DNA of 24,000 nt from Candidatus Wolframiiraptor allenii (GCA_023539495.1 JAKCEV010000012.1:1-24000), one strand, 5' to 3'. Counted from the stretch's first letter, positions 1 through 23,774 are shown. Numbers and translations are program-made. Notes: a model not told the origin generated them from the letters alone.

Positions 1-573
1 TTCAGGGTTTAAGCTTTCTATACTGAATTAGGAAATGGCTGGTGATAAGAGTGGGGCATGAGAGTTCTCGAAGAATGCAGCCTCCTAAAAGCTGGGTAAA
101 TTAATTGATTTTTAAGAAAGAATGGGGTGGAACTGGACAAGGAAAACCATGAACCACTATATAACATGGATAAGGGCAGTTTTCGAGAGCATATAGGTAT
201 GCGAGGAGGACTTACTCGGAGAAAGTCGGAGCAATAAGCCCCTAAATATTTTTGCCTTAGGAAGGTGGTGGGAGTTGGTGAAATGAATGAGCACAACGCT
301 GGACATTATGAGATTCTTGAGGAGCATGGTAGGAGAAGGCCGAAGTTCTTACCACCCATGGACTGGATAGCGGGAGATAGCTAAGTTAGGGAAGATAAAA
401 GATAGGTTGAACTCGAAATACAAGCTATAAACTATATTGGAGATATAGGATGAGCATCATGTTAAGGAGAATATTTAACTCATAGACAAGCAGAATCTAT
501 ATGACGAGGATAAGGTGGAGATGCACTATTCTGGAGGTCGCAGACAAACAGACGAAGAACACTAACTAAAAAT

Positions 574-2012: not shown

Positions 2013-2246
2013 TTATCCTTTCTGTGATAAAGGCCTTTTGCAGATCGGGCATGTCCCCCTCTCATCTATCCATGGCTGAACACATCTAGCATGCATCCTG
2101 TTCCCGCAGAATGGGCACTCGAATACAGGAACACCCTCATGTATCTCCGCTGAGCAGACCGGGCATATATCCAGCTTCTTTCCCTCCTCAAACTCGAGAT
2201 CCCACTCGCCTGCCTTCTCCTCCTCCAATATTATTATCCTCCTCAT
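2013..2246 (-). CDS. Small RING-type zinc finger protein (77 aa), putative E3 ubiquitin ligase
   Basis: Eight metal ligands are present: CPVC-x12-CPFC-x4-H-x2-C-x11-CPIC. The tail HARCVQPWIDERGTCPICKRPL resembles RING-H2 domains (H-x2-C-x2-W...CPxC). The start overlaps the E1 stop by 4 nt (ATGA). Confidence 0.85.
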   Translation of the reverse strand: MRRIIILEEEKAGEWDLEFEEGKKLDICPVCSAEIHEGVPVFECPFCGNRMHARCVQPWIDERGTCPICKRPLSQKG

Positions 2247-3436
2247 GGAGTCGTCACCTCCTCCTTGTGGAATTGAACCTTCAGCTGAAAGGGCATGAAC
2301 CTTCTACTAGTGGTGATATATAATGTGTCGCCCTCCTTGACCCCCAGCTCAGAGATCCTCTTATCATCTTGGAGCCTCCACTCCCGGTAAAGTATCTCAG
2401 GATCGGGGATGCTGAACGTCTCCGCTATCCTCCTCTTAAGGTCTAGGATAGTCTCATCAGGCTTGACCGTGATCGTCAGCCCCTCTTCAACTAGATCCCC
2501 GCAGACAAAGCATTCAGAGCTCCTCTCAAGCTCCACGATCGTGAACTGCCCCGCGAGACCATCATATACTAGGAGGCCCTTGATTGGCTCGCCAAGCTTA
2601 TTTCCATGAAGTATCTTCACTATCTCCGTTGAAGCCAGCCCCGAGATCATGGCGGCGACGCTTTGAAGCGCTGGGAGCTTCGGCTTCAGCTTCTCCCTTA
2701 TCCTCCTAACAACCTCCAGCGTCTTCTTATCCAGCCTCATCAACACGCCCTCATGAGCATACTTCAGATCATAGATCGTCTTGATGTCGTGCTCGAACAG
2801 CTTCTCCGCGATCTTCTGGCTAATCTCTATTCCCGCCTGCTTCAGGTCTTGAACGAGGTCTTCGGGTCTCCTCCTCCTCAACGTGCATTCAGCGAGCTGT
2901 GTCTCCTTCGGTATCAGATCTTCTCCATGACACTCTAGGCACGCTGTTTTCTTCGGTATCACGACTTGGAGATTAGCGTAAAACCCTTCCATCGCGACAT
3001 CCACGAGAGGCTTATCCAGCTCCACAGCGAGCGAGTTAAGCCACCTCCTAACAGGCCAATTATCAAGACATGATACTATAACATCAGCTCCCTCGAAGAT
3101 TGATTCACCGAGGTTTCTAACGTCCTCGAAGTATGGCTCAACCTCTATAAGTGGATTCATCCTCCTCAGTCTATCGGCTGCAACAATGGCCTTTGGCTTG
3201 CCAATATCCTCATCTAGGAAGAGCATCTGCCTACTAAGATTTGATAGCTCGATCACGTCATTATCGACTAGGATGAGCTTTCCAACGCCCATTAACGCGA
3301 GGTTTTTCGAGATCTCGCATCCCGTTGCGCCAACCCCTACCACAACGACTCTGGCCCTGCCAAGATTCTCCTGATCCCATCCCTCGATTCTCAGCTGCCG
3401 ATCATATCGCTCAAGGCCGCCTTGTTCCTCGGTCAT
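2243..3436 (-). CDS. E1-like ubiquitin-activating enzyme (ThiF/MoeB/UBA fold) with a C-terminal beta-grasp domain
   Basis: Adenylation Rossmann motif VVVGVGATGCEISKNLALMGVGKLILVDNDVIELSNLSRQ. Two CxxC pairs (CLEC, CFVC) could form a zinc site. LAECTL resembles the eukaryotic E1 catalytic-Cys motif. The last roughly 84 aa (LTITVKPDETILDLKRRIAETF...GVKEGDTLYITT) look ubiquitin-fold. Confidence 0.9.
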   Translation of the reverse strand: MTEEQGGLERYDRQLRIEGWDQENLGRARVVVVGVGATGCEISKNLALMGVGKLILVDNDVIELSNLSRQMLFLDEDIGKPKAIVAADRLRRMNPLIEVEPYFEDVRNLGESIFEGADVIVSCLDNWPVRRWLNSLAVELDKPLVDVAMEGFYANLQVVIPKKTACLECHGEDLIPKETQLAECTLRRRRPEDLVQDLKQAGIEISQKIAEKLFEHDIKTIYDLKYAHEGVLMRLDKKTLEVVRRIREKLKPKLPALQSVAAMISGLASTEIVKILHGNKLGEPIKGLLVYDGLAGQFTIVELERSSECFVCGDLVEEGLTITVKPDETILDLKRRIAETFSIPDPEILYREWRLQDDKRISELGVKEGDTLYITTSRRFMPFQLKVQFHKEEVTTP

Positions 3437-3499
3437 CCTACCACGTGAAAGCAGCCCAAATGGCTTATATGAGTATTATTATCTCTTCGGGATTCTCAG

Positions 3500-3979
3500 C
3501 TACTCTTGAAATGCGTACTCCGGCCTAGCATAAAGCTCAATATACGCCCTAACCCTAGCCTCGAAGATATCCGGCCTATACTTCATCTCAGCAGCGGCAA
3601 ATGTATTTAGAGGATCATCAGGGTTCGGATTATTGAGTAGGTTCCTTAAGGCTTCAACGACCGAGAAAAGATGAAGTGAAGGGCTCCAGTCATTCTTGAA
3701 TATCGATTCGCAGATCCTCGCGGGAACTTCATCCGTGAAGTTTGGATGCCATATCCTCGTCCACCAGACGACATCGGGAGGAGTGTATGGGAATGTACGC
3801 GGGACGATTATCTCCACCTTAAAGAATCCACCCTCATACAGTCCCTCGCCGATTATCACTCCACGGTAATGCGTCAGCTGGTTATCCACTATGTCGAATG
3901 TAGGCTCATTCTCCCTCATCAGCTTATACTCTAGCGCCAGTCTTCTACTCCACAGAGCCTCAGGAAGCCGTGTTTTCAA
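3500..3979 (-). CDS. E2 ubiquitin-conjugating enzyme (UBC fold)
   Basis: An HPN motif and catalytic Cys sit in WHPNFTDEVPARICESIFKNDWSPSL, followed by LLNNPNPDDPLN. Both are close to the eukaryotic UBC consensus (HPN...ICLDIL...WSPAL...PNPDDPL). The apparent start codon is TTG at 3979. Confidence 0.9.
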   Translation of the reverse strand: MKTRLPEALWSRRLALEYKLMRENEPTFDIVDNQLTHYRGVIIGEGLYEGGFFKVEIIVPRTFPYTPPDVVWWTRIWHPNFTDEVPARICESIFKNDWSPSLHLFSVVEALRNLLNNPNPDDPLNTFAAAEMKYRPDIFEARVRAYIELYARPEYAFQE

Positions 3980-4035
3980 GCTATTAATTCTATGCTCGGG
4001 AGGCAGGTAATTAACTTTGAGGCCCTCAGCCTACT

Positions 4036-4272
4036 TTATCCTCCAACAGTCCTAGTTATCAGTATGAGTTTATCTCCATCTTGGACTCCTATTGATTCAA
4101 GGGTTTCCGTATCCTTAAGTGCCCTACCCCTATATGTGAGCCTCGTCGTATCTGGTGGAAGCTTCTTCATCGCGCAAACCTTAGCCCTGATAGCTCCTAT
4201 AGTCGTGGAGGGCGAGACCTCCAGCTCTATAGGATTACCCCCTCCCACAGCGGGGACGATCCTAATCTTCAT
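4036..4272 (-). CDS. Ubiquitin-like protein (78 aa) ending in GG followed by the stop codon
   Basis: MKIRIVPAVGGGNPIELEVSPSTTIGAIRAKVCAMKKLPPDTTRLTYRGRALKDTETLESIGVQDGDKLILITRTVGG aligns by eye along its length with eukaryotic ubiquitin (ITLEVEPSDTIENVKAKI...[41 protein letters not shown]). The internal ATG at 4272 is preceded by aaGGAGtt. The GG codons are followed directly by TAA. Confidence 0.9.
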   Translation of the reverse strand: MKIRIVPAVGGGNPIELEVSPSTTIGAIRAKVCAMKKLPPDTTRLTYRGRALKDTETLESIGVQDGDKLILITRTVGG

Positions 4273-4314
4273 AACTCCTTCAAACCTCCTGCCTGAGAAT
4301 AGGGCAAGCACACG

Positions 4315-4326
4315 ATATATAAATAT
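4315..4326. promoter_or_regulatory. AT-rich TATA element (ATATATAAATAT) in the divergent Ub / JAMM intergenic region
   Basis: This is the only strongly TATA-like stretch between the Ub start (4272, minus) and the JAMM gene (plus). It lies about 45-55 nt upstream of the Ub ATG, leaving room for a short leader that carries the GGAG ribosome-binding site. Confidence 0.35.
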
Positions 4327-4450
4327 GTTGTGCGAGAAGCCTCCGGAAAAATATTCTTTAAGAGTTTTCCGGTAGGAATGACAAGTGCTGAGAAGGCCTG
4401 TTCCTACCTCAAGAATGTTAAAATCCCCCTTGAATAGCATTCTCCCTCGC

Positions 4451-5122
4451 ATGAGGGTTAGAGTCTATCCGCTGGCGCTTGGTAAGATGATAAAACATGC
4501 CCTTGATGATCTTAACAGGGAGGTTGCAGGGCTTCTCGTAGGGAAATACTTGAAGAAGGGCGATGTGCTTGAGATCTGGGACACTATAACGGGCGAGCAG
4601 AAGTCAACGCCCGGCTTCGTTTACCTCGAGGAGGAGACGATTGCCGCGGCGGCGGAATGGGTTCTCAGGAATAGGCCCGGCCTATACATCGTTGGATGGT
4701 ATCATTCTCACCCGGGTTTCGACGTATTCCTCTCGGCGATAGATATCGAGACGCAGAAGCTTTATCAGAGGCTTTTTCCAAAGGCCGTGGCCCTCGTAAT
4801 AGATCCTCTAAAATACGCGAAGACGAGGAGGCTTCAGGACCTCAACTTCAAGGTCTTCAGGATAAATCAGAAGGGCGAGGTGGTGGCTATTCCAGTCTCG
4901 ATAGGAATTCAGAGGCAGAAGCTATTGGAGAGCACGCTGAAGGGGATCGAGACCATGGAGCTGAAGTATATCAGTGGAGGCAAACCCGGCAGCGAGGCTG
5001 ATCAGGAGAAATTTGAAGATCTTGAGGCGGATCTCGGCTTTCCGGTTGACAGGCTCACGGGCTCACTGAGCAACCTCTTCAAAAAGATCAGAGATAGAGT
5101 TGGCTCCCATATCCAGCCTTGA
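4451..5122 (+). CDS. JAMM/MPN+ metalloprotease, Rpn11-like deubiquitylase
   Basis: Conserved upstream Glu (NREVAGLLVG) and the JAMM motif HSHPGFDVFLSAID (H-x-H-x7-S-x2-D) at 4703-4744. The start is set at the ATG giving MRVRVYPL. The ORF is open from GTG 4385, and ATG 4415 is another alternative. The gene is divergent from the Ub-E2-E1-RING operon. Confidence 0.85.
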   Translation: MRVRVYPLALGKMIKHALDDLNREVAGLLVGKYLKKGDVLEIWDTITGEQKSTPGFVYLEEETIAAAAEWVLRNRPGLYIVGWYHSHPGFDVFLSAIDIETQKLYQRLFPKAVALVIDPLKYAKTRRLQDLNFKVFRINQKGEVVAIPVSIGIQRQKLLESTLKGIETMELKYISGGKPGSEADQEKFEDLEADLGFPVDRLTGSLSNLFKKIRDRVGSHIQP

Positions 5123-9058: not shown

Positions 9059-9206
9059 TCATCCGTGCAGGTCATTCTCATCATTGGGATTTATTCTTAC
9101 CCCTTGCTGGGGGCTCAATTATAAGGGGATTATAGGTGTTTAAAAGTCTAGCGATGGAAACTAGCCGAGGAAATAGTTTTTACTTGTGTGGATGTCTTTC
9201 GCTTGG

Positions 9207-12200
9207 ATGGAGATTAGGAGCATCTATAACTTCGCTTGTAGTAATTGTGGCGGGGAGATAACCGATGCTAGGCTGATTGAGGTTGGGGTCTGTGAGAAGT
9301 GTCTACCCGGGAAGGCCACAAGCCTCATAGAGGCGGCCGAGGGGTTGAAGAGGCTTGGGAAGCTCGAGAAGCTTAGGGATTATCTCAGGATACAGGTCGA
9401 GTATGAGGGGTTTAGGAGGTTCTTCAGGAGGGCTCTCGGCTTTGAGCCCTGGGCTCTTCAGGAGGTCTGGGCGAAGAGGATAATCTCGGGCGATAACTTC
9501 GCCATAGTTGCTCCTACGGGTGTCGGCAAGACAGTTCTAGGGCTTATCATGGCGCTATATCTCCACGCAATGAGGCGGAAGCGGTGCTATGTGATAGTCC
9601 CCAGCAGCATCTTGGCCCAGCAGCTTTACGAGAAGGCATCATTATTCGCCGAGAGGCTCGGGCTCAAGCTCGGTGAGAGGCTGCTAGTCTATCACGCCGG
9701 CCTGAACAAGGCTGATAGGGAGAAGGTCCTTGAGGAGCTTAGGCAAAATGATGGCCCAATGATCCTGATAACGACCGACAGGTTCCTCGTGGATCATGGA
9801 GACCTGCTCATGAACATAAAACCATTCGACTACGTGTTCGTGGATGATGTCGACTCCTTCCTGAAGTCGCCTAAGAACATTGATAAGGCTGTTGGGCTTC
9901 TTGGGTTAAGGCCAGAGGCCGTTGACATTGCGCTCAAGCTTATAGATATCAGGATAAGGCTCGCGAGATCCCCTTCAAAGGACCTCTCCGAGGAATATGA
10001 GCGGCTCTCAAGGGCTATTGAGGAGGAAAGGAAGAGAAGGAGGGGGATACTCGTTGTAGCCGGCGCCACGCTTAAAGGGAAGAGGACAAGGCGCATGATG
10101 ATATTCGAGGAGCTGCTCGACTTCGAGGTCGGCAGATTCCAGGAGCTCGCGAGGAACGTCGAGGACCTCTATGTGGAGCCATCGGGAGACGTGATCGAGG
10201 AAACAATCAGGCTCATCAAGAATCATGGTGGCGGATGCCTCGTCTTCGTGCCACATGCTCTTGGTAGGACATATGCTGAGAGGGTGGCCGAGGCTTTGGA
10301 GCAGGCCGGCCTAAAAGCCCACCTATACAAGAAGATGAGCCCGGACATCCTCCAAAAGTTCGCGAGCGGTGAGATAGATGTCATGGTTGGCATAGCATCC
10401 TCGAGAAGCCCGTTCACGCGGGGGATAGATCTACCATCGAGGATAAGATACGCCGTCTTCGCCGGTGTCCCAAGGAGAGAGATCAGGATTGAGAGGGTTG
10501 AATATAATCCTGGTAAGCTCCTCACGCTTATCCTCAACCTGATACCGATTCTTGATGAGCGGCTGAGAAGGGAGTCCGAGCCAATTATAGCGAAGCTGAG
10601 GAAGATAACGCCGCTTACGAGGGATGTTATGGAGAAGATAAGGGAGGCTGATGAAAAAGGTGTGAGGCTCAGCGGCTTCGAGGGCTATGCACAGGATGTG
10701 ATAGCTTCAGCGAGGGATTTCGTGAACAGGATCCTAAGCCCCCAGCTCCTCGAGAGGATCGAGAGTGATCTCGATATAACCTTGAAGCAAGCTGATGATG
10801 GCTTCACCCTAATCATACCCGACACTACCGGCTATATCCAGGCATCCGGCAGGACCTCGAGGCTCTATCCATACGGCATCATGAAAGGCGTAAGCATAGT
10901 TGTTGTTGATGATGCTAGGGCTTTCAGGGGCCTTATAACGAGGCTTAAGGCCCAGATAGAGGAGCTGGACTTCGAGCCATATGATCCGAAGAAGGCTGAG
11001 CTGATATTCGAGCAGGTTGATAGGGAGAGGAGGATTCTCGCCGAGATCCAGCGAGGCGAGGTCGAGATACGCGTAAAGGACTTGGTCAGGGCCGCGTTAA
11101 TGCTCGTTGAGTCGCCGACGAAGGCTAGGACTATCGCCTACCTCTTCGGGAGGCCGTTCAGGAGAAGGATCGGGCCGCTGACTGTCTATGAGGCGGCGAT
11201 AGGCGGCGTGATAGTCGGCGTCGCCGCGACGCAGGGCCATATAACAGACCTGATCACAGGCTCTGAGAGGGGGCTTCATGGGGTTGAGAGGATTGATGGC
11301 AGGTTTATCCCGGTTTACGGCGTCATAAAGAGATGCTATAACTGCGGTGAGCAGTGGGCTGATGGAAGGCCATGCCCGTCATGCGGCTCAGATGATATAT
11401 TCGACAAGATCGAGATAATCGAGGCGATTAGGAGGCTTGCGCAGCAGTATAACGAGGTCTACTTGGCGACGGATCCGGATGCCGAAGGAGAGAAGATATC
11501 ATATGATCTCATGTGTCTTATTAAACCATTTAACCCGAACATCTATAGGCTCGAGTTCCATGAGGTTACAAGAAGGGCCCTACTCTCAGCTCTCCAAGCC
11601 AAGAGGGATGTTAACATTAACCTCGTGGAGGCGCAACTCTTAAGACGAATCGAGGACAGGTGGATAGGGTTCGAGCTTAGCAGGAAGCTCTGGGAACGGT
11701 TTGGGAGCAAGTGGCTCTCGGCCGGAAGGGTTCAGACACCCGTGCTTGGATGGATAATAGAGAGGACAAACGAGTATAAGAGGAAGAAGGCACTAGTACG
11801 TATAAGGCTTAGCGAGAATCTCTACATAGACCTCCTCGAGCCCAAGAACGCTGATGAGATCCTGAGGGAGTGGGAAGAGGGGAGGCTCAGGGTGATCGTC
11901 AGGGTTCTCGGCGAGGAGGAGGCTACCGTTAACCCGCCCCCACCATATACCACGGACTCCCTCCTAAGGGATGCCTCCGCCTACCTGAAGCTCTCGGCGG
12001 CTAATGCGATGAGGGTGGCTCAGGACCTGTTCGAGGCGGGTCTCATAACATATCACAGGACCGATGCGACAACGGTCTCGCAGGTCGGCATAGGGATAGC
12101 GAGGGAGTATCTGAGCAAGATTGATCCAAGCCTCTTCATGCCTAGGACGTATAGAGTTGAGGGTGCTCATGAGTGTATCAGGCCTGTTAAGCCTCTTGAC

Positions 12201-12836
12201 GCTGAGAAGCTCCGATACTATATCAGGATAGGCCTCATCACAGTGCCTGCAGCCAAGCTCACCGAGACACATTACAGGATGTACGACCTGATATTCAGGA
12301 GGTTTATCGCGAGCCAGTGTAGGCCGGCCAAAATAGTCACGCAGAGGGTCTCCGTCGAGGTCCTAGGCAATATTGTCGAGCAGGCTAGGGATGTGGCAAT
12401 ACTGGATAAGGGGTTCCTTGAGTTCTACCCGACAATCAGGGTTATGGATAGGGTTGAGGGCGGTGAGTATCTTGTAAGCGGCGTAGAGGTTAGGAAGATT
12501 CCATCCGCCTGGCTCCTGACCGAGGGCGATGTCGTCGCGCTAATGAAGGAGAGGGGGATAGGCCGGCCAAGCACATACAGCAAGATAATAGAGACTCTTC
12601 TGGAGAGGGGATATGTTATAGAGAGGGCTGGAAGGCTCATAGCGACCAGCAAGGGCATGAGGATATACCAGTATCTGACTGAGAGGTTTGGAGATTATGT
12701 CTCGGAGGAGCTGACGAGAAGGCTCGAGGCCGACATGGACCGCGTCGAGAACGGCGAGGCTGATTACCAGAAGATACTTGAGGAGCTCTATCAGGAGGTC
12801 ATGGCGATCAGGGCAGCTCCAGCGATAAGCAGGTAG
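9207..12836 (+). CDS. rgy: Reverse gyrase (helicase-like domain fused to a type IA topoisomerase)
   Basis: N-terminal Zn finger CSNCGG...CEKC. Walker A APTGVGKT and a DEAD-like VDDVD. TOPRIM motifs VESPTKARTIA and YLATDPDAEGEKIS. A second Zn finger CYNCGE...CPSCGS. Active-site tyrosine context LITYHRTD. The ORF is open from GTG 9186; ATG 9192 or 9207 are the likelier starts. Confidence 0.95.
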   Translation: MEIRSIYNFACSNCGGEITDARLIEVGVCEKCLPGKATSLIEAAEGLKRLGKLEKLRDYLRIQVEYEGFRRFFRRALGFEPWALQEVWAKRIISGDNFAIVAPTGVGKTVLGLIMALYLHAMRRKRCYVIVPSSILAQQLYEKASLFAERLGLKLGERLLVYHAGLNKADREKVLEELRQNDGPMILITTDRFLVDHGDLLMNIKPFDYVFVDDVDSFLKSPKNIDKAVGLLGLRPEAVDIALKLIDIRIRLARSPSKDLSEEYERLSRAIEEERKRRRGILVVAGATLKGKRTRRMMIFEELLDFEVGRFQELARNVEDLYVEPSGDVIEETIRLIKNHGGGCLVFVPHALGRTYAERVAEALEQAGLKAHLYKKMSPDILQKFASGEIDVMVGIASSRSPFTRGIDLPSRIRYAVFAGVPRREIRIERVEYNPGKLLTLILNLIPILDERLRRESEPIIAKLRKITPLTRDVMEKIREADEKGVRLSGFEGYAQDVIASARDFVNRILSPQLLERIESDLDITLKQADDGFTLIIPDTTGYIQASGRTSRLYPYGIMKGVSIVVVDDARAFRGLITRLKAQIEELDFEPYDPKKAELIFEQVDRERRILAEIQRGEVEIRVKDLVRAALMLVESPTKARTIAYLFGRPFRRRIGPLTVYEAAIGGVIVGVAATQGHITDLITGSERGLHGVERIDGRFIPVYGVIKRCYNCGEQWADGRPCPSCGSDDIFDKIEIIEAIRRLAQQYNEVYLATDPDAEGEKISYDLMCLIKPFNPNIYRLEFHEVTRRALLSALQAKRDVNINLVEAQLLRRIEDRWIGFELSRKLWERFGSKWLSAGRVQTPVLGWIIERTNEYKRKKALVRIRLSENLYIDLLEPKNADEILREWEEGRLRVIVRVLGEEEATVNPPPPYTTDSLLRDASAYLKLSAANAMRVAQDLFEAGLITYHRTDATTVSQVGIGIAREYLSKIDPSLFMPRTYRVEGAHECIRPVKPLDAEKLRYYIRIGLITVPAAKLTETHYRMYDLIFRRFIASQCRPAKIVTQRVSVEVLGNIVEQARDVAILDKGFLEFYPTIRVMDRVEGGEYLVSGVEVRKIPSAWLLTEGDVVALMKERGIGRPSTYSKIIETLLERGYVIERAGRLIATSKGMRIYQYLTERFGDYVSEELTRRLEADMDRVENGEADYQKILEELYQEVMAIRAAPAISR

Positions 12837-15685: not shown

Positions 15686-15716
15686 CCTCCTCGCGGGAAT
15701 TGCTCAGAACCGTCCC

Positions 15717-15724
15717 TATATAAG
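15717..15724 (-). promoter_or_regulatory. TATA box (minus-sense AAAGCTTATATA) for the 141-aa pilin gene
   Basis: The element lies about 32-39 nt upstream of the ATG at 15685 and has a purine-rich BRE-like flank. This implies a very short leader. Confidence 0.35.
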
Positions 15725-15862
15725 CTTTATGCTCGAGGCCGTGCTAGCCATAGGGAAAACAAGTATCTCCAAACGCTTTGGCCACGAGCCCACATATGCT
15801 GTGAAATAGTCATGCGCAAGCCTTATTTTAGAAGTTATCAGCATTAGAGCCCGGGAAGGGGG

Positions 15863-16231
15863 TTGGTCGAGGAGTATCTTGAGCCAAACCTGGTCAAGAA
15901 GGCCTTCAAGGATGCCATGAGATCCATCTTTGGCGAGAACGGCTCGCGGATCCTCGAGCTCCATCTCAGAAGATTTCTCGGGAAGGATCCATATGAGGCC
16001 ATCTACGAGGATCCGAGGCTCTTCTGCGATGGCCTGAGAGCATTCTTCGGCCCCGGGGCTAGAGGCCTCCTCATAGTCCTGGCCAAGACCCTGATAAAGG
16101 AGAGCGGGATACAGGGCCTGACGCCAAGCCAGATCATCGAGATCCTAGAGAGCGGCGACCAGGAGCTTAAGACCCACTTCTTCGCAATCCTCTGCTCCTC
16201 CCAACGCAGAGTTGGGGGTGGCGTCAGGTGA
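15863..16231 (+). CDS. Small helical protein, paralog A of an uncharacterised family (122 aa)
   Basis: Shares G...LE..L...PY....DP.L....L...FG......L.....LI..SG with the 18869-19300 product (for example DPYEAIYEDPRLFCDGLRAFFG versus SPYKLLLRDPQLYYNALTSIFG). TTG start. The stop overlaps the KaiC-like GTG start by 4 nt. Confidence 0.6.
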   Translation: MVEEYLEPNLVKKAFKDAMRSIFGENGSRILELHLRRFLGKDPYEAIYEDPRLFCDGLRAFFGPGARGLLIVLAKTLIKESGIQGLTPSQIIEILESGDQELKTHFFAILCSSQRRVGGGVR

Positions 16232-17643
16232 ATCCAACCGGGATACCCGGCGTAGATGAGCTGATAGGAGGCCTGCCAAGAGGAGAGCTCGTGATAGTGG
16301 CCGGTGGCCCGGGAACAGGGAAAACAATGTTCTCGGCGGGATTCCTATACTGGGGCGCAGTGAAATACGGCGAGAAGGGCCTATACGTCTCGCTCGCCGA
16401 GGATCACGATACATTCATCAGGAACATGAAGCGGGTCAGCTATGACTTCAGGGAACTGGAGGATCGCGGCCTCTTCCACTTCATCGACGCATTAACAGTT
16501 ATGGAGACCGGAATAGCAGAGCTCCTCGAGACGATAATAGAGGAGGCATCATCATTTGGGGCCCAGAGGCTGGTCATAGACTCCCTCTCAGCCCTCGCCC
16601 AAGGGATGAGGGAGCCGAGAGAGCTCAGAGTCTTCCTCCACACGCTCCTATCAAGGATAATGAGAGGCCTAGGATGCACGACAATACTAATCGAGGAGGT
16701 CCCAGTCGGCGAGACAAGAATAGGGTATGGCTTCGAGGAATTCGTAGCCTCAGCAGTCATAGTACTTGAGAAAGACATGATAGATAACAGGTTCATCAGG
16801 AGGATGAGGATCGAGAAACTGAGAGGTCTCCCAATAAGAAGTAAAATGGCGTGTTACACGCTTGGAGCGGGGTTCATAGCCTTCCCACCATACAAGACGC
16901 CGGTACTTGAGAGTCCGAGGACTCCAGATCCTATACCAGACCCACCCGGTAGATACTCTAGCGGGCTAAAGGATTTGGATGAGGCTTTAGGAGGGTATCC
17001 GAAGGGGTCTACAATCCTCTTGGAAATAGACGCTATGGTAACCAGGGATCAATACAGGGTGCTAATTTGGCCGCATTCGGCCAACTTCCTTCGAAACAAA
17101 AGACCGATAATAACGGTCCCTGGGATAGGGAGTAGTCCGAAGGATCTGGAAGCATTCTATGAGAGTTATGCCCTCCCAGAGGATGAACGAAAGCTCGCAA
17201 GGCACTTCCTAGCAGTAGAGGCTGTTAACCGGCATTCTCCAGCAAACATAATCGCATATGATCCAAAAGATGGTGCGGTCTCATTAATTGAGAAAATTGA
17301 GTCTACTGCTGAGGAACTGATGAAGACTGTTGGAAGCCCGCCCTTGATTGTGATAAGCATGGACTCGCTTGAATTCAACTACGAGCTCGAGGATGTGTTG
17401 AAGATGGTCTCGAGGATTGCGGCTTGGACTAGGAGAAATAATGCTTTAAGTCTCTTAGCAGATAAATCCTCATATCCGGAGCTCACCAGAAAAATATCCT
17501 CAATAGCCTCCATCCACCTGAAACTCACGAGAAGGCATGGGTGCCTCCTTCTCTACGGCATCAAGCCCATGATACACCTACATGCCGTAAAAATAGAAAC
17601 CGGGAAGGGGTATTATGAGACAAGGCTCATCCCAATCACTTAG
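16228..17643 (+). CDS. KaiC/RadA-like two-domain ATPase with a degenerate second domain
   Basis: Domain 1 has GIPGVDELIGGLPRGELVIVAGGPGTGKT (Walker A) and RLVIDSLSAL (Walker B). Domain 2, from about 16948, repeats the fold entry SSGLKDLDEALGGYPKGSTILLEIDAM but has no GxxGxGKT P-loop. Confidence 0.85.
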   Translation: MNPTGIPGVDELIGGLPRGELVIVAGGPGTGKTMFSAGFLYWGAVKYGEKGLYVSLAEDHDTFIRNMKRVSYDFRELEDRGLFHFIDALTVMETGIAELLETIIEEASSFGAQRLVIDSLSALAQGMREPRELRVFLHTLLSRIMRGLGCTTILIEEVPVGETRIGYGFEEFVASAVIVLEKDMIDNRFIRRMRIEKLRGLPIRSKMACYTLGAGFIAFPPYKTPVLESPRTPDPIPDPPGRYSSGLKDLDEALGGYPKGSTILLEIDAMVTRDQYRVLIWPHSANFLRNKRPIITVPGIGSSPKDLEAFYESYALPEDERKLARHFLAVEAVNRHSPANIIAYDPKDGAVSLIEKIESTAEELMKTVGSPPLIVISMDSLEFNYELEDVLKMVSRIAAWTRRNNALSLLADKSSYPELTRKISSIASIHLKLTRRHGCLLLYGIKPMIHLHAVKIETGKGYYETRLIPIT

Positions 17644-18685
17644 TCCTCCGCTCCTCCTCCAAATGCCTATAAAACTCCCGGGGGGCCAGCTCTGGATACT
17701 CATCAGCCCCGGCCCTCTCAACAATATGCCTCCTAATATCGAGGCATAAATCGCACTTCGAGATGTATCCATCGCTTCTCTCCATGTAATTGTATTCCTT
17801 GACCGCGAACCTGTATAGGCTCCCGAGATCCTCGAGGATGAGCATGCCGAGGATGGGCCTCTCATCGGGATCCAAGCCTCCCTCAACTAGCTCATCAAGC
17901 TTCCTAGCGTCGCCGAGCGACAAGCCGGCGCAATACCCGGTGATGAGATTGCCATAATTATCAATATGAGCATGCCAGCTCCTCAGCAAGTTATCCCTAC
18001 AATCCTCGTCAAAGAAGACCTTCGCCGGATACCTCCTAAACAACTCGCGAAGCTTATAACATGCCCTCCCCATTGGCAGGAGCTCAGCCCACCTCAATCC
18101 ATCAACGCCAAGCCTCGCCAAATATTCCTCGAAGCCCATCGTCCCCCTAAGCCCAAGCCTCCTAAACTGATCATAGAACTCGCGCTGATAGATTATCAGG
18201 CTGCCATCAAATATTCTCTCACCCAGCTCAGCCGCCAACACCATCCTCTCAAACGGCGTATACTCCACGAGAAACGGGTTGACGCTGACGAGCATGCCAT
18301 CGAGGCCGGCCTGCCTAAGCTCAAGAAGCATCTCCTCAGCCCTCTCACGGCTCGCACACCAGAAACAATTCGTCTCAACAAAAACAGACGGTATACCATA
18401 ATCCTCCGCAAGCTCAACAGCCCTCAGGAGAAGCCTATAATTAAGAAACGGCTCACCACCGGTAAAATGAAGGCCATAATTGATGCCAATCCTCGACGAG
18501 CCACTAGGAGCAGGTATAATATTTCCCGAGAGCTGGCCCAATATTCTACCCAGATCGCTCTCCGAGATCCAGTCGCCACCCCAAGATGGAGAACAAGCAT
18601 ACATACAATGCCTACAAACCGAGGTGCACTTGTAAGAGAGAAGAATACCGCAGGAAACAGGCTTAGGCAGATAGATCCTCCCCAC
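17636..18685 (-). CDS. Radical SAM enzyme of unknown specificity
   Basis: CxxxCxxC cluster motif YKCTSVCRHCMY (18605-18628), the SAM-binding-like HFTGGEPFL, and extra C-terminal cysteines (GYCAG, CDLC). The GTG start is preceded by GGAGGGG. Its 3' end overlaps the KaiC-like gene end by 8 nt, in convergent orientation. Confidence 0.85.
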   Translation of the reverse strand: MGRIYLPKPVSCGILLSYKCTSVCRHCMYACSPSWGGDWISESDLGRILGQLSGNIIPAPSGSSRIGINYGLHFTGGEPFLNYRLLLRAVELAEDYGIPSVFVETNCFWCASRERAEEMLLELRQAGLDGMLVSVNPFLVEYTPFERMVLAAELGERIFDGSLIIYQREFYDQFRRLGLRGTMGFEEYLARLGVDGLRWAELLPMGRACYKLRELFRRYPAKVFFDEDCRDNLLRSWHAHIDNYGNLITGYCAGLSLGDARKLDELVEGGLDPDERPILGMLILEDLGSLYRFAVKEYNYMERSDGYISKCDLCLDIRRHIVERAGADEYPELAPREFYRHLEEERRTK

Positions 18686-18827
18686 GACCCCTCCAAAATC
18701 CTATAGCTCCCAACATGATAGACTTTTACGCGTAACTTATGGCCACCCTGAGAAAAATATATAAACTAGGAGCATTATTCGAGATGACTTTCTTTACATT
18801 TTTGCAAAAAGATTGGGAAAATTTTGT

Positions 18828-18839
18828 AAAAATATATAT
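18828..18839 (+). promoter_or_regulatory. TATA box (AAAAATATATAT) for small-protein paralog B
   Basis: The element ends 29 nt upstream of the ATG at 18869, which fits a leaderless or near-leaderless transcript. A second TATA-like element at 18753-18765 could serve the divergent radical SAM gene. Confidence 0.35.
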
Positions 18840-18868
18840 CCCCGCCAAACCATATTTTTATCGAAAAC

Positions 18869-19300
18869 ATGTCCGAGGAAGACAGGTACGCCTCCATCCT
18901 CAGGTCCGTGCTCGAGGAGCTTCTTGGAAGTAGCGCGTTAAAGGTTCTTGAATACCAGCTCTCAAAGAGCTATCCCGAGACAAGTCCCTATAAGCTGCTA
19001 TTAAGAGACCCTCAGCTATATTATAACGCGTTAACCTCAATCTTCGGGAACGAGGGCAGTCTCATCTTCCTAAAGCTGATCCTCAAACACCTCATAACAA
19101 GATCAGGCACCACCACAATAGACCCGGACACGCTCGCAAGATCACTCATACGCGGAGAAAAAGATGCCATAAACACGCTCATACAAACACTGGAGAAAGT
19201 AGCAAATTTTCGAGACGAAGCGAATCTCAAGATAATCGAGACGCCTCAAGTTTTAAAGGAAGCTGAGAAATGGAAGGGAATGGGGGTTGGAGGAAACTAG
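18869..19300 (+). CDS. Small helical protein, paralog B of the same uncharacterised family (143 aa)
   Basis: Similarity by eye to the 15863-16231 product across roughly 90 aa. Its 3' end overlaps the next gene's TTG start by 14 nt. Confidence 0.6.
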   Translation: MSEEDRYASILRSVLEELLGSSALKVLEYQLSKSYPETSPYKLLLRDPQLYYNALTSIFGNEGSLIFLKLILKHLITRSGTTTIDPDTLARSLIRGEKDAINTLIQTLEKVANFRDEANLKIIETPQVLKEAEKWKGMGVGGN

Positions 19301-20336
19301 AAAAGTAGTAGAAGCATTAATGAAAGTTGGTCCTAGATTTTCCGATATATCAAGAGCCACCGGTATCCCAGTCTCAACAGTAAGATACATTATACTAAAA
19401 AGACTACCAAAACTAGGTCTTTCCATTAGGCCCTCAATAAATTATGGAGCATTAGGCCTGCAAAGATATTTAGTGACGTTTCGGAGCAGCTATCCCACAT
19501 ACTACATTTCTAACATACTAGACCTACTTGGAGAATACGCGTACCTAGATTACTACACTTATCTAATGACGGAGAAAAAGTTTTTCGCGATCTTCGCTAT
19601 ACCGCCAAGTTACGAAAAGGACTTTCTAGATTTTCTAGACTTACTTGAATCGATGATTTTGATCAAGGAGGTGGAAACATGTAAACTCACATATATGAGA
19701 CCTCTTCCATTCATGGTTGAATTCTTCGATTTTTCGAGAGGGGTATGGATTCAGGATTGGATTAGCATGAGAAAGACTAGAAATATCCCAGAGACGCCTG
19801 AATATCCTGCCCCTCATCCCAAGATAGATAAAGTGGATCTTATCTTAATAGCAGAACTTCAAAAAGGTATAGCTCCAATAAAGTACAATAGTTTAGCTCA
19901 AAAATTCAATTTAACCCGCCAAACAATTAGTAAGCATTATAAGCACGTGAAGAATTTGATAAATTTGTTTACGATCTTTTGGGCTCCTCACATGAACCCT
20001 CAGCTCCTACTGCTTCCATTAATGGTTAAAGTGGAAGCTAGGAAAGATTTCAGGGAAATACTGCTTAGCATACCATTTACATATACTGAATTCAGAAGCG
20101 AAGGAGGGGATTATTTTGCGATGTTAATGATGCCAAACGTTGGTTCATACAATACTTTAAAATTCCTAACAAGTTCACTAGATGTGATTAGCATAGATTT
20201 TCAAGATATGGAATATAGTGGAAAATTTACAATTCAACATAATTTATTTAAAAACGGACTATGGATTAACGTCTTCGACGAAGTTGCAAGGAAGCTGGTT
20301 GTTTTGATAAAATCTCGCAGCGGACAATTACGATAA
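19287..20336 (+). CDS. Putative transcription regulator with two tandem HTH-plus-effector (Lrp/AsnC-like) modules
   Basis: Module 1: RFSDISRATGIPVSTVRYIILKRL followed by INYGALGLQRYLVTF. Module 2: DLILIAELQKGIAPIKYNSLAQKFNLTRQTISKHYKHV followed by a similar alpha/beta-looking segment. The start is TTG 19287 (an alternative is ATG 19320). The region is visibly AT-rich. Confidence 0.6.
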   Translation: MEETRKVVEALMKVGPRFSDISRATGIPVSTVRYIILKRLPKLGLSIRPSINYGALGLQRYLVTFRSSYPTYYISNILDLLGEYAYLDYYTYLMTEKKFFAIFAIPPSYEKDFLDFLDLLESMILIKEVETCKLTYMRPLPFMVEFFDFSRGVWIQDWISMRKTRNIPETPEYPAPHPKIDKVDLILIAELQKGIAPIKYNSLAQKFNLTRQTISKHYKHVKNLINLFTIFWAPHMNPQLLLLPLMVKVEARKDFREILLSIPFTYTEFRSEGGDYFAMLMMPNVGSYNTLKFLTSSLDVISIDFQDMEYSGKFTIQHNLFKNGLWINVFDEVARKLVVLIKSRSGQLR

Positions 20337-20383
20337 AAATAAAAATTTGGATGAATTTTCCGTCTTAGAGGGCGCTCCTAGGT

Positions 20384-20521
20384 TTAGAATGGAACTTTCG
20401 AAACCTTCTCCGCCGGAACGCCTGTTAGAGCTGCTACTGCTATTATTGCGGCTTCAATTGCTATTATGATCAGCATCTCTTTGGAGATTCCTGCTTTCAG
20501 GGCGACATCCTCAAACTTCAT
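20384..20521 (-). CDS. Candidate small hydrophobic protein (45 aa), absent from the ORF track
   Basis: Manual translation gives MKFEDVALKAGISKEMLIIIAIEAAIIAVAALTGVPAEKVSKVPF followed by stop. TTAATTAA lies 23-30 nt upstream of the ATG, which is leaderless geometry. A T-rich tract (ATTTTTATTTT) follows the stop on that strand. There is no homology evidence. Confidence 0.25.
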   Translation of the reverse strand: MKFEDVALKAGISKEMLIIIAIEAAIIAVAALTGVPAEKVSKVPF

Positions 20522-20693
20522 GCCGTATAATAGGTTCGGGGGGTTAATTAACATTTTCACAAAATTTTCATAATTGCTTGCATTTTTGTTAAGATCTTAG
20601 AGTAAAACTTATATATTATGTACCCAAAATCTGGGCTCCTATGCGTGAGATTGTATATTTTAGGCAAATTGATTTTAAGATGTTATTGGTTGC

Positions 20694-21374
20694 ATGGTTT
20701 TGATGCGGTTGAGTATTGGCTTCATCGTGCTGATTCTTCTTACGCTGGTCTTGGCCGTTTTCCTGATCTACCGGCTGGGGTTTGTGTTGTTTTCTTCTAG
20801 GGCCGACTCGGTTTATCCGAGGCCTGTTGTTGAGCTTTTTCTTGAGCATGGTGATGTGCTTATTCCTGTTCGGGGTGACGTATTGTTGAAGGAGCCTCTT
20901 CCCAGCGACCTTAAGCTTATTGTTAGGCTGAGTAACAATAGTAGTGAGCCTAGTTTGAAAGGTGAGTTTGCGGCTGGTGTCCTCTTGATGCTGGAGGGCG
21001 TGAGGGTGAAGGATATTGAGTTGCGCGGATTTGTGGGCGCGATTGGGGTAGGCGAGGATGGCAGCGTAGTCTCGCCCGTGAACGCCAGCATCGTAGAGTT
21101 ATTCGCTAGCAAGCTCGATCCATGGTGTTCCATAGAAGCAGAGCTCACCCTGCATAGGGGGAATGAGTCGGGTTGTTTCCAACTTGCTTATAGGGGTTGG
21201 ATAATGGATGAAGATGATCGTGTCTTGGAGCCTGTCAGCGGCTCTGAGGAGCCCTATATTGCCAGGTATCCTCCTGAGAGCTATCCGGATAATCCACCTG
21301 ATTCCAGATGGGCTGGGCGTGATTTTATGAAGTATGCTGTTTACCGGGCGGAGGTCTGTTATCTGGGAGGCTGA
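20694..21374 (+). CDS. Membrane-anchored protein of unknown function (226 aa)
   Basis: An N-terminal hydrophobic helix (LSIGFIVLILLTLVLAVFLIYRLGFVLF) is followed by a soluble domain with no motif I recognise. A TATA-like TTATATATTA lies at about 20609-20618. Confidence 0.55.
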   Translation: MVLMRLSIGFIVLILLTLVLAVFLIYRLGFVLFSSRADSVYPRPVVELFLEHGDVLIPVRGDVLLKEPLPSDLKLIVRLSNNSSEPSLKGEFAAGVLLMLEGVRVKDIELRGFVGAIGVGEDGSVVSPVNASIVELFASKLDPWCSIEAELTLHRGNESGCFQLAYRGWIMDEDDRVLEPVSGSEEPYIARYPPESYPDNPPDSRWAGRDFMKYAVYRAEVCYLGG

Positions 21375-21380
21375 GCCCGC

Positions 21381-23774
21381 CTAAGCCCTCTCAACCCGGG
21401 AGTATCCGGCCTCTATCTCGACGCGGTAGACTTGGTTTGCTGCTTGCTCAACTTCTGGGTCATGCGTGACGATTATCGCCTGCGGTATCAAGCCCCTCTC
21501 GCCACGGAGGTTTGCTAGGAGCCTCACGAGCTCCCTCCTCCTCTCGGGGTCAAGATGTATTGTCGGCTCATCCATCAGGATACACTGGATCCTGTTTCCG
21601 GTGAGAGCTGCCGCTATACCGAGCCTTAGGCAGAGGGCTATCGCCGTCTTCTCGCCGCCGCTCAGTGAGTCTATCGGTTGTTCGCCAAACGGCCCATAGA
21701 CATAGACGTTATAATCCTCATCGAGCCTCAGATCCGTGTATGCTAGGTTGAAGAATCTGAGAAGTCTCCTTGCATAATGTTCTATGCTCCTCCTCGCAGC
21801 GGCCCTTACATGCTTCTGGACGCCATCCTTTCCAAAGGCCTCCCGGATCACCCGAAGCCTAGAGAGCTCACGCTCTACAATCTCGAGCTTCTCCCTAGCG
21901 ATCTTCAACCGCTCAAGCTCGTTGGCGAGCCGCATCCTCTCATCCTCCAGATCTCTCAAACGCTGGACATGTGCGGAATACTCCTCCCTAAGGCTGCTAA
22001 GCCTCTCGAGAACATCCCTCAACCTCCCCCGGAGATCCTCGTAATCCTTCTCGCTATATCCGATGCTCCTCATCCTCTCCACCATCCACCTCTTCTTCTC
22101 CTCGAGCTCCATGATCTCGGATGCGAGCCTCTTGATCTTCTGCTCTATCTCGCTGCTCGATCCAAGCTTCTCGAGAATCCCTCTCTCCCTCTCCAGCCTC
22201 CTAACCTCCTCCTCAACACTCCTCATGGCGCTCATCCTCTCCTCCAAAGCCCTCTTGAGCTGCTCGAGCTCACTAGGAGCCTCTATGCTCCTCAGCTCCG
22301 ATTCGATCCTCATCTTCTCATTCTCCAGCTCCGCGAGCCTTGAGATCGTGTCCTCGACTCTACGCGGATCAATCGTCGAGAGCTCCTCAAGCATGGCCCT
22401 GGCGGACCCGAGATCTAGGCGAAGCTCCTCCCGCTCCACCTCGAGCGCCCTAGCCCTCTTCTCGTGCTCCTCAAGCTCGATCCTGAGATCCTCTAGGACC
22501 TTCATCCTATGCTCCTCCGTCATAGGTCTCCTGCATAGCGGGCACACCGCCCCGCCTTTTTCAAGCTCCTCGATCCTCTCCATCGCGGTCTTCACCATGC
22601 CCTGAGCCTCGCCGATCTCCTCGCCGAGTCTTCGAACCCTCTGCTCAAGCTCCTCCACAACCCTCCTCTGCTCCTCGATTAATCCCCTAAGGACGTTGTG
22701 CAGCTCCTCTAGTCTCTCAAACCTACGGCCTGAGAACTTCTCAATCCTCCTCATCCAGCCCTCAATAAGCGATCTATGCGACGAGACCTCCCTCATGATC
22801 TCCGTGAGCCTCCTCTCGAGAATATCCTTCCTAGACTTCATGGCCTCTAGCTCTATGAGCCTGCTTCTCAGCTCCTCCACCTCTCCTCTCAGCCTAGTCA
22901 GCTCCTCTTCCGCCTTCTCAAGCTCGAGCACCCGCTTTTCCGCTTCTTTTACAAGTGTTAGATTCTTTTCATGGGACTCGAGCTCCCCCCTCCTTGATGC
23001 TATCAGGCTATCAAGCTTCGCGATGGCCTCCTTGAGCCCCTCAATCCTCCTCCTATCTTCCTCCATGGACCTTAGCCTTGACTCAAGTTTACCACGCTCC
23101 TCCTCTAGGCCGCGGATCTCGGGCTCGAGCAGGCTCACCCGTTCCCGAGCCTTCGCAGCCTCCGTCTCAACCTCTCCCAGCCTTCTCTCAACCTCTCCAG
23201 CCCTCTCAACCTCTTTCCTAAGCTCCGTGGCCTTTTCCTCGAGCAGCCTAATCGGTGTCCTCAGATCCTCCCAGAGTCTCTCGAGATCCTCTATCCCGAG
23301 AAGCCTCGAGATTATCTCCTTCCTCTCTGCGGGCCTCGCCTCAAGCAGCCTCGCCATCTCTCCCTGCCTGACATACGCGGCGCTCATGAAGACCTCGCGC
23401 GGTATCCCGAGAATCCTCTCGATCTCCGGCAGAACAGTCTTCTCGCCAGCATCCACCAGCAACATCGAGCCTGATGTTAAATCCCGGAGGGTTGCCTGGG
23501 CCCTCTTACCCCTACCAAGCCTCCACGTTATCTCATATGCTCTCCCGCCGGAGCTGAATGTAACCTGAATCATGGCATTTGAGGCGGCCCTGTTTATCAG
23601 GTTCTCATCCCTCCCGCGGCTATGCTCCTTGAAGAGGGCGAATGTCACAGCATCGAGGATTGATGTCTTCCCAGATCCATTATCGCCCACCAAGACTGTG
23701 AGGCCCTGCGGGAACTCGATGAACGTATCCCTATGCGAGATGAAGTTTCTCAGCCTAACCGAGTGTATTATCAT
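21381..23774 (-). CDS. rad50: DNA double-strand break repair ATPase Rad50
   Basis: Walker A GDNGSGKTSILDA, a long bipartite coiled coil with a central zinc hook (GGAVCPLCRRPM), the ABC signature LSGGEKTAIALCLRL, and Walker B/D-loop CILMDEPTIHLD. Confidence 0.93.
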   Translation of the reverse strand: MIIHSVRLRNFISHRDTFIEFPQGLTVLVGDNGSGKTSILDAVTFALFKEHSRGRDENLINRAASNAMIQVTFSSGGRAYEITWRLGRGKRAQATLRDLTSGSMLLVDAGEKTVLPEIERILGIPREVFMSAAYVRQGEMARLLEARPAERKEIISRLLGIEDLERLWEDLRTPIRLLEEKATELRKEVERAGEVERRLGEVETEAAKARERVSLLEPEIRGLEEERGKLESRLRSMEEDRRRIEGLKEAIAKLDSLIASRRGELESHEKNLTLVKEAEKRVLELEKAEEELTRLRGEVEELRSRLIELEAMKSRKDILERRLTEIMREVSSHRSLIEGWMRRIEKFSGRRFERLEELHNVLRGLIEEQRRVVEELEQRVRRLGEEIGEAQGMVKTAMERIEELEKGGAVCPLCRRPMTEEHRMKVLEDLRIELEEHEKRARALEVEREELRLDLGSARAMLEELSTIDPRRVEDTISRLAELENEKMRIESELRSIEAPSELEQLKRALEERMSAMRSVEEEVRRLERERGILEKLGSSSEIEQKIKRLASEIMELEEKKRWMVERMRSIGYSEKDYEDLRGRLRDVLERLSSLREEYSAHVQRLRDLEDERMRLANELERLKIAREKLEIVERELSRLRVIREAFGKDGVQKHVRAAARRSIEHYARRLLRFFNLAYTDLRLDEDYNVYVYGPFGEQPIDSLSGGEKTAIALCLRLGIAAALTGNRIQCILMDEPTIHLDPERRRELVRLLANLRGERGLIPQAIIVTHDPEVEQAANQVYRVEIEAGYSRVERA

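Follow-up and report, generated by a model that had tools for sequence, protein, structure and literature searches.

The 24-kb window analyzed here (GCA_023539495.1 JAKCEV010000012.1:1-24000, i.e., the whole stretch of DNA under study) comes from Candidatus Wolframiiraptor allenii, a hot-spring Aigarchaeote close to Ca. Wolframiiraptor gerlachensis, and contains a locus in which two genes for small helical proteins, A and B, each lie directly before a different partner gene. A precedes a gene for a KaiC-like ATPase, B precedes a gene for a helix-turn-helix (HTH) protein, and a gene for a radical S-adenosylmethionine (radical SAM) enzyme lies on the opposite strand between the two pairs (Table 1). 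A preliminary description of this DNA had proposed a single regulatory module, in which a duplicated small protein is wired to an ATPase and to a DNA-binding output around the radical SAM enzyme. All five open reading frames (ORFs) that it named were found where it had placed them, and its central observation, a duplicated small helical protein with each copy coupled to a different partner, is borne out by the conserved gene neighborhoods of relatives, whose loci are referred to below by numbers (L001, etc.).

The gene junctions, taken from the sequence, also agree with that description: the A and KaiC-like genes overlap by 4 nt (GTGA), the B and HTH-protein genes by 14 nt, and the convergent radical SAM gene shares 8 nt at its 3′ end with the KaiC-like gene. 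The paralogy of A and B is significant in a formal pairwise comparison (BLASTP E = 2e-9, 25% identity over 89 aa), and the two proteins share the blocks G-x2-[GA]-x2-[IV]-LE-x2-L and PY-x5-DP-x-L-x4-L-x3-FG. These blocks had been noted before with a spacing one residue off, which does not affect the conclusion. No ORF in the window other than A and B matches the profile of their family.

Table 1. Features of the A/B locus and its surroundings; positions are counted from the first letter of the window.
Feature	Position	Strand	Remarks
Pilin-like protein, 366 aa	14093-15193	+	N-terminal hydrophobic, class III signal-like segment; KG/LS motif
Type IV pilin-like protein, 141 aa	15260-15685	-	RKG followed by LSPLLAIIIGLVV; divergent from A
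Divergent pilin/A control region	15686-15862		Ten-locus alignment A8
Paralog A	15863-16231	+	122 aa, TTG start
KaiC-like ATPase	16228-17643	+	471 aa, GTG start
Radical SAM enzyme	17636-18685	-	349 aa
Cassette block	18690-21381		2,692 bp; B, tandem-Lrp regulator, 45-aa ORF, orf226
Second copy of TGGCCA motif, TATGGCCAC	18738-18746	+	First copy, TTTGGCCAC, in pilin/A spacer
B-operon promoter	18799-18842	+	Two operator boxes and TATA box
Operator box 1, TTTTTGCAAAAA	18799-18810	+	Exact palindrome match
Operator box 2, ATTTTGTAAAAA	18821-18832	+	Two mismatches to palindrome
TATA box, AAAATATATAT	directly against box 2	+	
Paralog B	18869-19300	+	143 aa
Tandem Lrp/AsnC-like regulator (HTH protein)	19287-20336	+	349 aa, TTG start
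Conserved 45-aa ORF, MKFEDVALKAGISKEMLIIIAIEAAIIAVAALTGVPAEKVSKVPF	20384-20521	-	Hydrophobic core; homolog at same position in L016
Second B-type double-box promoter, inverted	20540-20600	-	Before 45-aa ORF; inverted repeat I2, 86%, 22 nt
orf226, 226-aa protein	20694-21374	+	Transmembrane-like N-terminus, membrane-anchored; last cassette gene
ThiF/E1 fused to C-terminal ubiquitin domain	2243-3436	-	Unusual fusion
UQ_con E2	3500-3979	-	
JAB/MPN deubiquitinase	4385-5122	+	

The small proteins had not been assigned to any recognized family. Sequence evidence places A and B, as divergent members, in or beside Pfam PF11537 (DUF3227/NitrOD5; PH0832-like, structure 2p9x). The PF11537 scores, 25.4 bits for A (E = 1.6e-5) and 15.7 bits for B (E = 0.017), fall under the Pfam gathering score of 27, and P0001, a protein 97% identical to A, carries the PF11537 annotation. 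An exhaustive profile search yielded 89 cluster representatives of the small-protein family, nearly all of them stand-alone proteins of 95–170 aa; 27 of the 74 members that were aligned match PF11537 at E < 0.01, with one of the family (P0108) at 27.0 bits. B matches the family profile at E = 2.9e-35. The top PDB match of the 74-sequence profile is 2p9x, the structure of PH0832 from Pyrococcus horikoshii (E = 8.9e-5 over 66 residues), which is also matched, weakly, by the single sequence of A (E = 0.043). The AlphaFold2 (AF2) model of A has a pLDDT of 88, a pTM of 0.81, and five helices, two of which are ~30 residues each.

In a rough neighbor-joining tree (no bootstrap), the proteins coupled to KaiC (A-types) and those coupled to Lrp (B-types) fall into two sister clades; most proteins of a third clade stand alone, but it also includes one that is KaiC-coupled and one that is Lrp-adjacent. 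NitrOD5 has been described as a response-regulator output domain that often stands alone, in several copies per genome, and that Thaumarchaeota have fused to a receiver domain in their REC-NitrOD5 response regulators (Galperin et al. 2018, PMC5847659). In the portion of the literature consulted, the PF11537 family goes by the name of archaeal ‘Death domain-like’ adaptors and is linked to KaiC-like ATPases. Matches of A and of the family profile to TAL-effector proteins were rejected as sums of weak repeats with no individually significant stretch. Residues 82–99 of A (window 16100–16160), ‘GIQGLTPSQIIEIL’, resemble the TAL-effector repeat core ‘HGLTPEQVVAIAS’, probably a chance likeness between helical hairpins.

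The partner of A has a KaiC-family ATPase domain, with a match to PF06745 at E = 7e-59 and to the KaiC structures in the PDB at E = 1e-35 to 1e-45 (N-terminal domain, CI/CII). It had been described as a two-domain KaiC-like ATPase; two KaiC-like domains are indeed present, but a motif scan leaves a single active one. The N-terminal domain is of the active type, with a Walker A motif GGPGTGKT (residues 26–33) and a Walker B motif LVIDS (residues 115–119), whereas the C-terminal domain has lost the P-loop. The C-terminal region matches GvpD_bR2 (38.2 bits, cutoff 27.9). Of the 408 bits required by the NCBIfam KaiC equivalog, the protein reaches 128.6, and it fails the ArlH equivalog as well.

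The coupling of A to this ATPase is conserved well beyond the immediate relatives. The A-type alignment retrieved 33 metagenome loci, and the KaiC-like gene follows the A-type gene in 12/12 informative metagenome contigs, a pairing kept in relatives as low as 28% identity. The 4-nt overlap itself recurs in L001, L014, and L017/18, in which identity is 73%, 54%, and 28%, respectively. A genome scan with the KaiC-like protein as a single query returned just two near-identical loci. A pair of this composition was predicted computationally by Makarova, Koonin and Albers (2016, PMC4858521), who placed a KaiC-like ATPase (arCOG01174) together with a DEATH-like protein of alpha-helical make-up (arCOG03758) in type IV pilus loci and proposed that the small protein acts as a KaiB-like second component or adaptor, possibly in KaiB’s place. 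Judged by its gene order and sequence, A-KaiC appears to correspond to this predicted pilus-associated pair, ‘KaiC-like + alpha-helical DEATH-like’. Thus, since the NitrOD5 literature and the 2016 prediction came before, the family is not an unknown one and the pairing with KaiC is not new.

The adjacent type IV pilin genes, overlooked in the preliminary description, are the strongest contextual clue at the locus. A homolog of the 141-aa pilin lies on the opposite strand, 5′ of the A-type gene, in 31/32 informative loci, and its N-terminus is strongly conserved even where A is at 38% identity. The sole exception is L046, in which a TackOD1 pilus-locus homolog occupies this place (2–406, minus strand). 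In L049, whose A-type protein is 38% identical to A, a full pilus operon faces A-KaiC and consists of TackOD1, T2SSF, the T2SSE ATPase, and two pilins. The 141-aa protein itself has a weak match to the UpsA pilin (E = 9.9e-6). The 366-aa pilin-like protein is its paralog and is encoded by a variable gene, missing in L019, L032, L034, and L040, with a HAD hydrolase gene directly before the 141-aa pilin gene, and apparently fragmented in L022, L031, and L042. The control region between the pilin and A genes contains a TATA box beside the pilin gene and a TATA-like CCTTATTTTAGAA ~35 nt 5′ of the A start; at the center of the spacer, the ten-locus alignment A8 shows a conserved TTTGGCCAC (15777–15785). 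Transcription of A-KaiC would diverge from that of the type IV pilin genes, with the B cassette transcribed separately. The TackOD1 proteins of the pilus operons facing A-KaiC carry a double zinc ribbon (L049, 841–1929, minus strand; L046, 2–406, minus strand). TackOD1 and NitrOD5 are both output domains of thaumarchaeal response regulators (PMC5847659), so two ‘output domains’ meet at these pilus loci.

The partner of B is most readily read as a tandem Lrp/AsnC-like regulator made of two HTH-plus-effector halves. The 349-aa protein has weak HTH matches at residues 4–38 and 180–219 and scores 21.4 bits against the HTH_AsnC-type model (cutoff 27), with no match to PF01037. A homolog in the Bathyarchaeota locus L003, aligned over its full length by BLASTP (E = 1e-8), exceeds that cutoff with 34.8 bits in two stretches. 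A small profile of the regulator family (A4) matches the Lrp structures 2dbb (E = 9.6e-5) and 1i1g (residues 180–301, HTH and effector domain). The two halves align in register with weakly positive significance by hhalign (E = 0.0022), and not significantly by BLASTP; the N-terminal half is very divergent. The AF2 model of the protein (pLDDT 40) is unusable. The gene has a GC content of 0.367 and a third-position GC content (GC3) of 0.354, compared to 0.50–0.57 and 0.55–0.75, respectively, for its neighbors; this low GC is not shared by B and orf226 of the same cassette.

Like the A-KaiC pair, the B-regulator pair recurs in relatives, namely in the window’s clade, L016, L049, and L052, and in reversed order in L003, where the 147-aa ORF 5′ of the regulator falls outside the small-protein family. 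In L049, the order is A-KaiC, then a B-type gene, then the N-terminus of a tandem-Lrp gene. In L052, the B-type/regulator pair has no KaiC gene in the 1.4 kb upstream. The pair belongs to a larger cassette that, in the window, also contains a 45-aa ORF and orf226, and L016 has the same gene set, i.e., a B-type gene, the regulator, a small ORF on the minus strand, and, 3′ of the HTH gene, a homolog of orf226 (E = 8.6e-63). Searches of orf226 against Pfam, NCBIfam, and PADLOC gave no match. The cassette is present in L011/12, L013, and L029, replaced by 48 bp in L001 (blastn breakpoints), and absent from L036. The one fixed module that had been proposed is therefore not supported: the B/HTH block is a 2.7-kb indel that is missing in the close relatives L001 and L036 and that has no KaiC gene in the 1.4 kb upstream in L052.

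The cassette carries its own candidate control elements. Two boxes of the TTTTTGCAAAAA palindrome lie 5′ of every B-type gene, 22 bp apart from center to center; those at 18799 and 18821 are the only two such sites in the 24-kb window, and exact TTTTTGCAAAAA copies in the fetched loci occur only 5′ of B-type genes. Alignment A9, of six loci, is invariant mainly at the boxes and the TATA box, and the flanks have diverged. The spacer between the radical SAM gene and B, earlier regarded as a shared divergent promoter region, is divergent and 183 bp long, but the conserved B promoter and its operators are confined to the B-proximal 75 bp. A second double-box promoter of the same type, inverted, precedes the 45-aa ORF, and this layout of inverted promoter and ORF is alike in the window and L016. 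The L016 annotation gives the 45-aa ORF a false 29-codon N-terminal extension that runs through the operator.

Palindromic boxes beside their own TATA box are typical of autoregulated archaeal Lrp-type regulators. Since both cassette promoters carry the same double palindromic operator beside the TATA box, the B cassette is most likely self-regulating, and we infer that the tandem-Lrp protein is the operator binder.

A cassette that comes and goes as a unit raises the question of whether the two pairs have anything to do with each other beyond common ancestry. They could be functionally unrelated, with A-KaiC serving the pilus and the B cassette autonomous and perhaps mobile, a reading we regard as fairly unlikely. 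The clean 2.7-kb indel, the deviant GC, and the duplicated operator-bearing promoters of its own all fit an autonomous cassette, as do its occurrence without KaiC in the 1.4 kb upstream in L052 and beside other genes in L003, and the retention of A-KaiC without the cassette in L001 and L036. Against this, A-KaiC adjoins B-regulator in two well-separated lineages, the window’s clade and L049, whose small proteins are 38–50% identical, even though each pair is also found alone. Furthermore, the cassette has no flanking direct repeats and no integrase; these and RNA genes were all looked for and not found, and the mobile-element candidate was rejected.

A TGGCCA-containing motif in both promoter regions, kept across lineages, also speaks against unrelated pairs. 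The pattern T[TA]TGGCCAC occurs only twice in the 24 kb (15777 and 18738), once per promoter region, with 0.10 occurrences expected for a pattern picked post hoc; the TGGCCA background is 0.25 per kb. TGGCCA lies 5′ of the B-type gene in L011, L013, L029, L016, and L049, and the core is found at matching places in L014, L016, L046, and L048–L050. The motif may be a site for a shared regulator, and, because the pattern was defined after the data had been seen, it serves only as a lead.

The radical SAM enzyme, which the preliminary description had put at the center of the module, has the CX3CX2C motif CTSVCRHC at residues 20–27 and scores 29.1 bits against PF04055 (cutoff 29.5). It resembles YydG in the core only, and only the core aligns to 8ai3; membership in the YydG family was rejected (41 bits against a cutoff of 300). 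Matches of residues 243–277 (window 17855–17960) to designed PPR (pentatricopeptide-repeat) proteins (summed E = 1e-13) contain no individually significant stretch and were judged spurious. A defense-system reading was likewise discarded, PADLOC having given merely a generic likeness of the radical SAM core to viperin models. A C-terminal CxxC motif (residues 311–314) could bind an auxiliary cluster.

Only within the close Aigarchaeota clade, in the window, L001, L011, L013, L021, L029, and L036, does the gene lie beside A-KaiC; L049, in which A-KaiC-B-regulator is contiguous, lacks it. Of the linkages proposed earlier, those to KaiC-like and HTH genes are conserved in the neighborhoods and that to radical SAM genes is not. 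Because it is absent between KaiC and B in L049, we read the enzyme as a lineage-specific insertion or bystander that lies outside the module. The earlier model, i.e., one integrated module whose two pairs control or respond to the radical SAM product, draws on the position of the gene between the pairs, on its 8-nt overlap with the 3′ end of KaiC, and on the adjacency across the close clade. We consider it very improbable indeed. L049 has the four other genes without the enzyme; the enzyme stays in L001 and L036 though B and its regulator are absent; its gene runs toward that for KaiC, which rules out co-transcription of the two; and since A is conserved at 73% identity or more in every locus with this adjacency, the adjacency may be inherited synteny.

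With the radical SAM enzyme set aside, each small protein probably binds the product of its adjacent gene, which would make the locus an arrangement of two partner-specific pairs. In the proposed mechanism, A would act on the KaiC-like protein in the manner of KaiB on KaiC, either setting its ATPase or oligomeric state or reading that state out, and B would tune how the tandem-Lrp regulator binds DNA. Transcription would be the output, that of the cassette and, with less confidence, that of the pilus genes.

That the small proteins are not adaptors at all, being DNA-binding regulators, or else simple factors that chaperone or stabilize the downstream protein, seems quite improbable. The Joint Genome Institute (JGI) names B homologs ‘predicted transcriptional regulator’, many family members stand alone with large spacers, and the conserved operators could in principle bind B. 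However, A and B match no model of an HTH or of any other DNA-binding domain, and AF2 renders A as a five-helix bundle that includes two long helices; the receiver fusions (REC-NitrOD5, PMC5847659) and the tight coupling to two unrelated partners suit a protein-protein module better.

Five observations weigh against the reading of partner-specific pairs tied to the pilus. (i) Sampling: close relatives account for many of the loci in the sample, and only ~four independent lineages back each pairing. (ii) Stand-alone members: several divergent members of the family stand alone (L004/L005, 5001–5402; L006, L007, and L010; L008 and L009; L015), in Nezhaarchaeales, Thermosphaera, Sulfolobales, and others, with long flanking spacers and neighbors that encode an MFS transporter, PIN, rhodanese, or archaellin, and no KaiC or Lrp partner close by; partner coupling is therefore not universal. 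(iii) Fold: a Foldseek search with the confident AF2 model of A gave no significant match to 2p9x or to a death fold, a six-helix bundle (best E = 2.4), so that the ‘Death-like’ label rests on the literature, in the portion consulted. (iv) Pilus genes: the window has pilins only, with no pilus ATPase or TadC gene in its 24 kb. (v) Operators: a scan of the window found no TTTTTGCAAAAA-type operator near the pilin/A promoter; there is thus no direct tie of the regulator to the pilus genes, and direct control of the pilins by the regulator is not claimed.

A bolder extension of the partner-specific pairs is that A and B bind each other homotypically and so bridge a KaiC-type switch or timer to the tandem-Lrp factor, thereby setting pilus and surface-protein expression. 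We hold this to be unlikely. If true, the A:B bridge would amount to an archaeal signalosome, comparable to eukaryotic death-domain assemblies or to the KaiC-KaiB output, and the thaumarchaeal REC-NitrOD5 fusions would feed two-component signals into the same A:B hub.

KaiC-like ATPases are the most expanded candidate signaling proteins of archaea, and their interlocutors are almost wholly unknown. The locus offers a compact case, with one active KaiC-like ATPase, two putative adaptors with distinct partners, a transcription factor whose candidate operator is sharply delimited, and pilins as the likely read-out. Should the adaptors bridge the ATPase and the regulator, it would provide the first concrete wiring diagram of a ‘KaiC hub’ and a function for DUF3227/NitrOD5. 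Should they not, the gain in annotation remains, i.e., the family, the tandem-Lrp regulator with its operator, and the removal of the radical SAM enzyme.

Elsewhere in the window, a eukaryote-type ubiquitin system occupies 2243–5122, as known in Caldiarchaeum-type Aigarchaeota. A 1216-aa reverse gyrase, a hyperthermophile marker, and a Rad50-like ATPase are encoded at 9186–12836 and 21381–23774, respectively; in the relative L001, Mre11 lies 3′ of Rad50. No RNA families were detected in the window.

Compared with known systems, A and B share with PF11537, PH0832, and the REC-NitrOD5 proteins the core VLE-HL ... DP--F---L---FG, a length of ~100 aa, an all-alpha make-up, and a mostly stand-alone, often multicopy occurrence. 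They differ in scoring just under the cutoff, in an additional C-terminal helical part, and in having no receiver fusion; a coupling to KaiC or Lrp is not included in the Pfam description of PF11537. The regulator resembles the archaeal Lrp/AsnC (FFRP) proteins LrpA, Ss-LrpB, and PH0061 in its putative HTH_AsnC-type motif and effector domain and in the AT-rich palindromes at its own TATA box. Unlike those proteins, it has two Lrp-like units in one 349-aa chain and always has a DUF3227-family gene directly before or after its own.

The likeness of the A-KaiC pair to the cyanobacterial KaiABC system lies in the N-terminal domain, which aligns with KaiC CI/CII, and in a small partner encoded alongside. 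It differs in the failed equivalog, in a second domain without a P-loop, and in a partner that is all-alpha rather than thioredoxin-like; no KaiA- or KaiB-like genes are present in the window, and the protein falls outside the definition of a circadian KaiC. In the regulation of haloarchaeal gas vesicles by GvpD and GvpE, the proposed target of GvpD, a KaiC-family P-loop protein, is a transcription regulator. The window shares with that system a KaiC-family P-loop protein and the C-terminal match to GvpD basic region 2, and departs from it in a GvpD_P-loop score of 15.8 bits (cutoff 24), in the absence of gvp genes from the window, in an Lrp-like regulator, and in the small adaptor paralog that is interposed. 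For the B-Lrp wiring, the conserved double operator, and the variable cassette, no description was found in a literature search that did not extend to the 2017 mBio paper by Makarova, Galperin and Koonin, which is said to have extended the 2016 KaiC-like/DEATH-like prediction.

An experimental parallel comes from Haloferax volcanii, in which motility and shape are governed through one regulon by the KaiC-like protein CirA together with the regulator CsmR (PMC13286277), a precedent for KaiC-like proteins and transcription factors acting on pilus-like structures. Common to both cases are a KaiC-like protein, a transcription factor, and a type IV pilus-like surface structure, united in H. volcanii in that one regulon; CirA and CsmR belong to other protein families and another phylum, have no adaptor paralogs, and are encoded by genes not described as adjacent. 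The pair predicted in 2016 has, like A-KaiC, a small all-alpha gene directly beside a KaiC-like gene, close to pilin and pilus genes, with the family link made through DUF3227/PF11537. A-KaiC appears to be a further member of this computationally predicted kind, set apart by an ATPase with a second, degenerate domain, by the second paralog attached to a tandem-Lrp regulator with its operators, and by the Aigarchaeote host.

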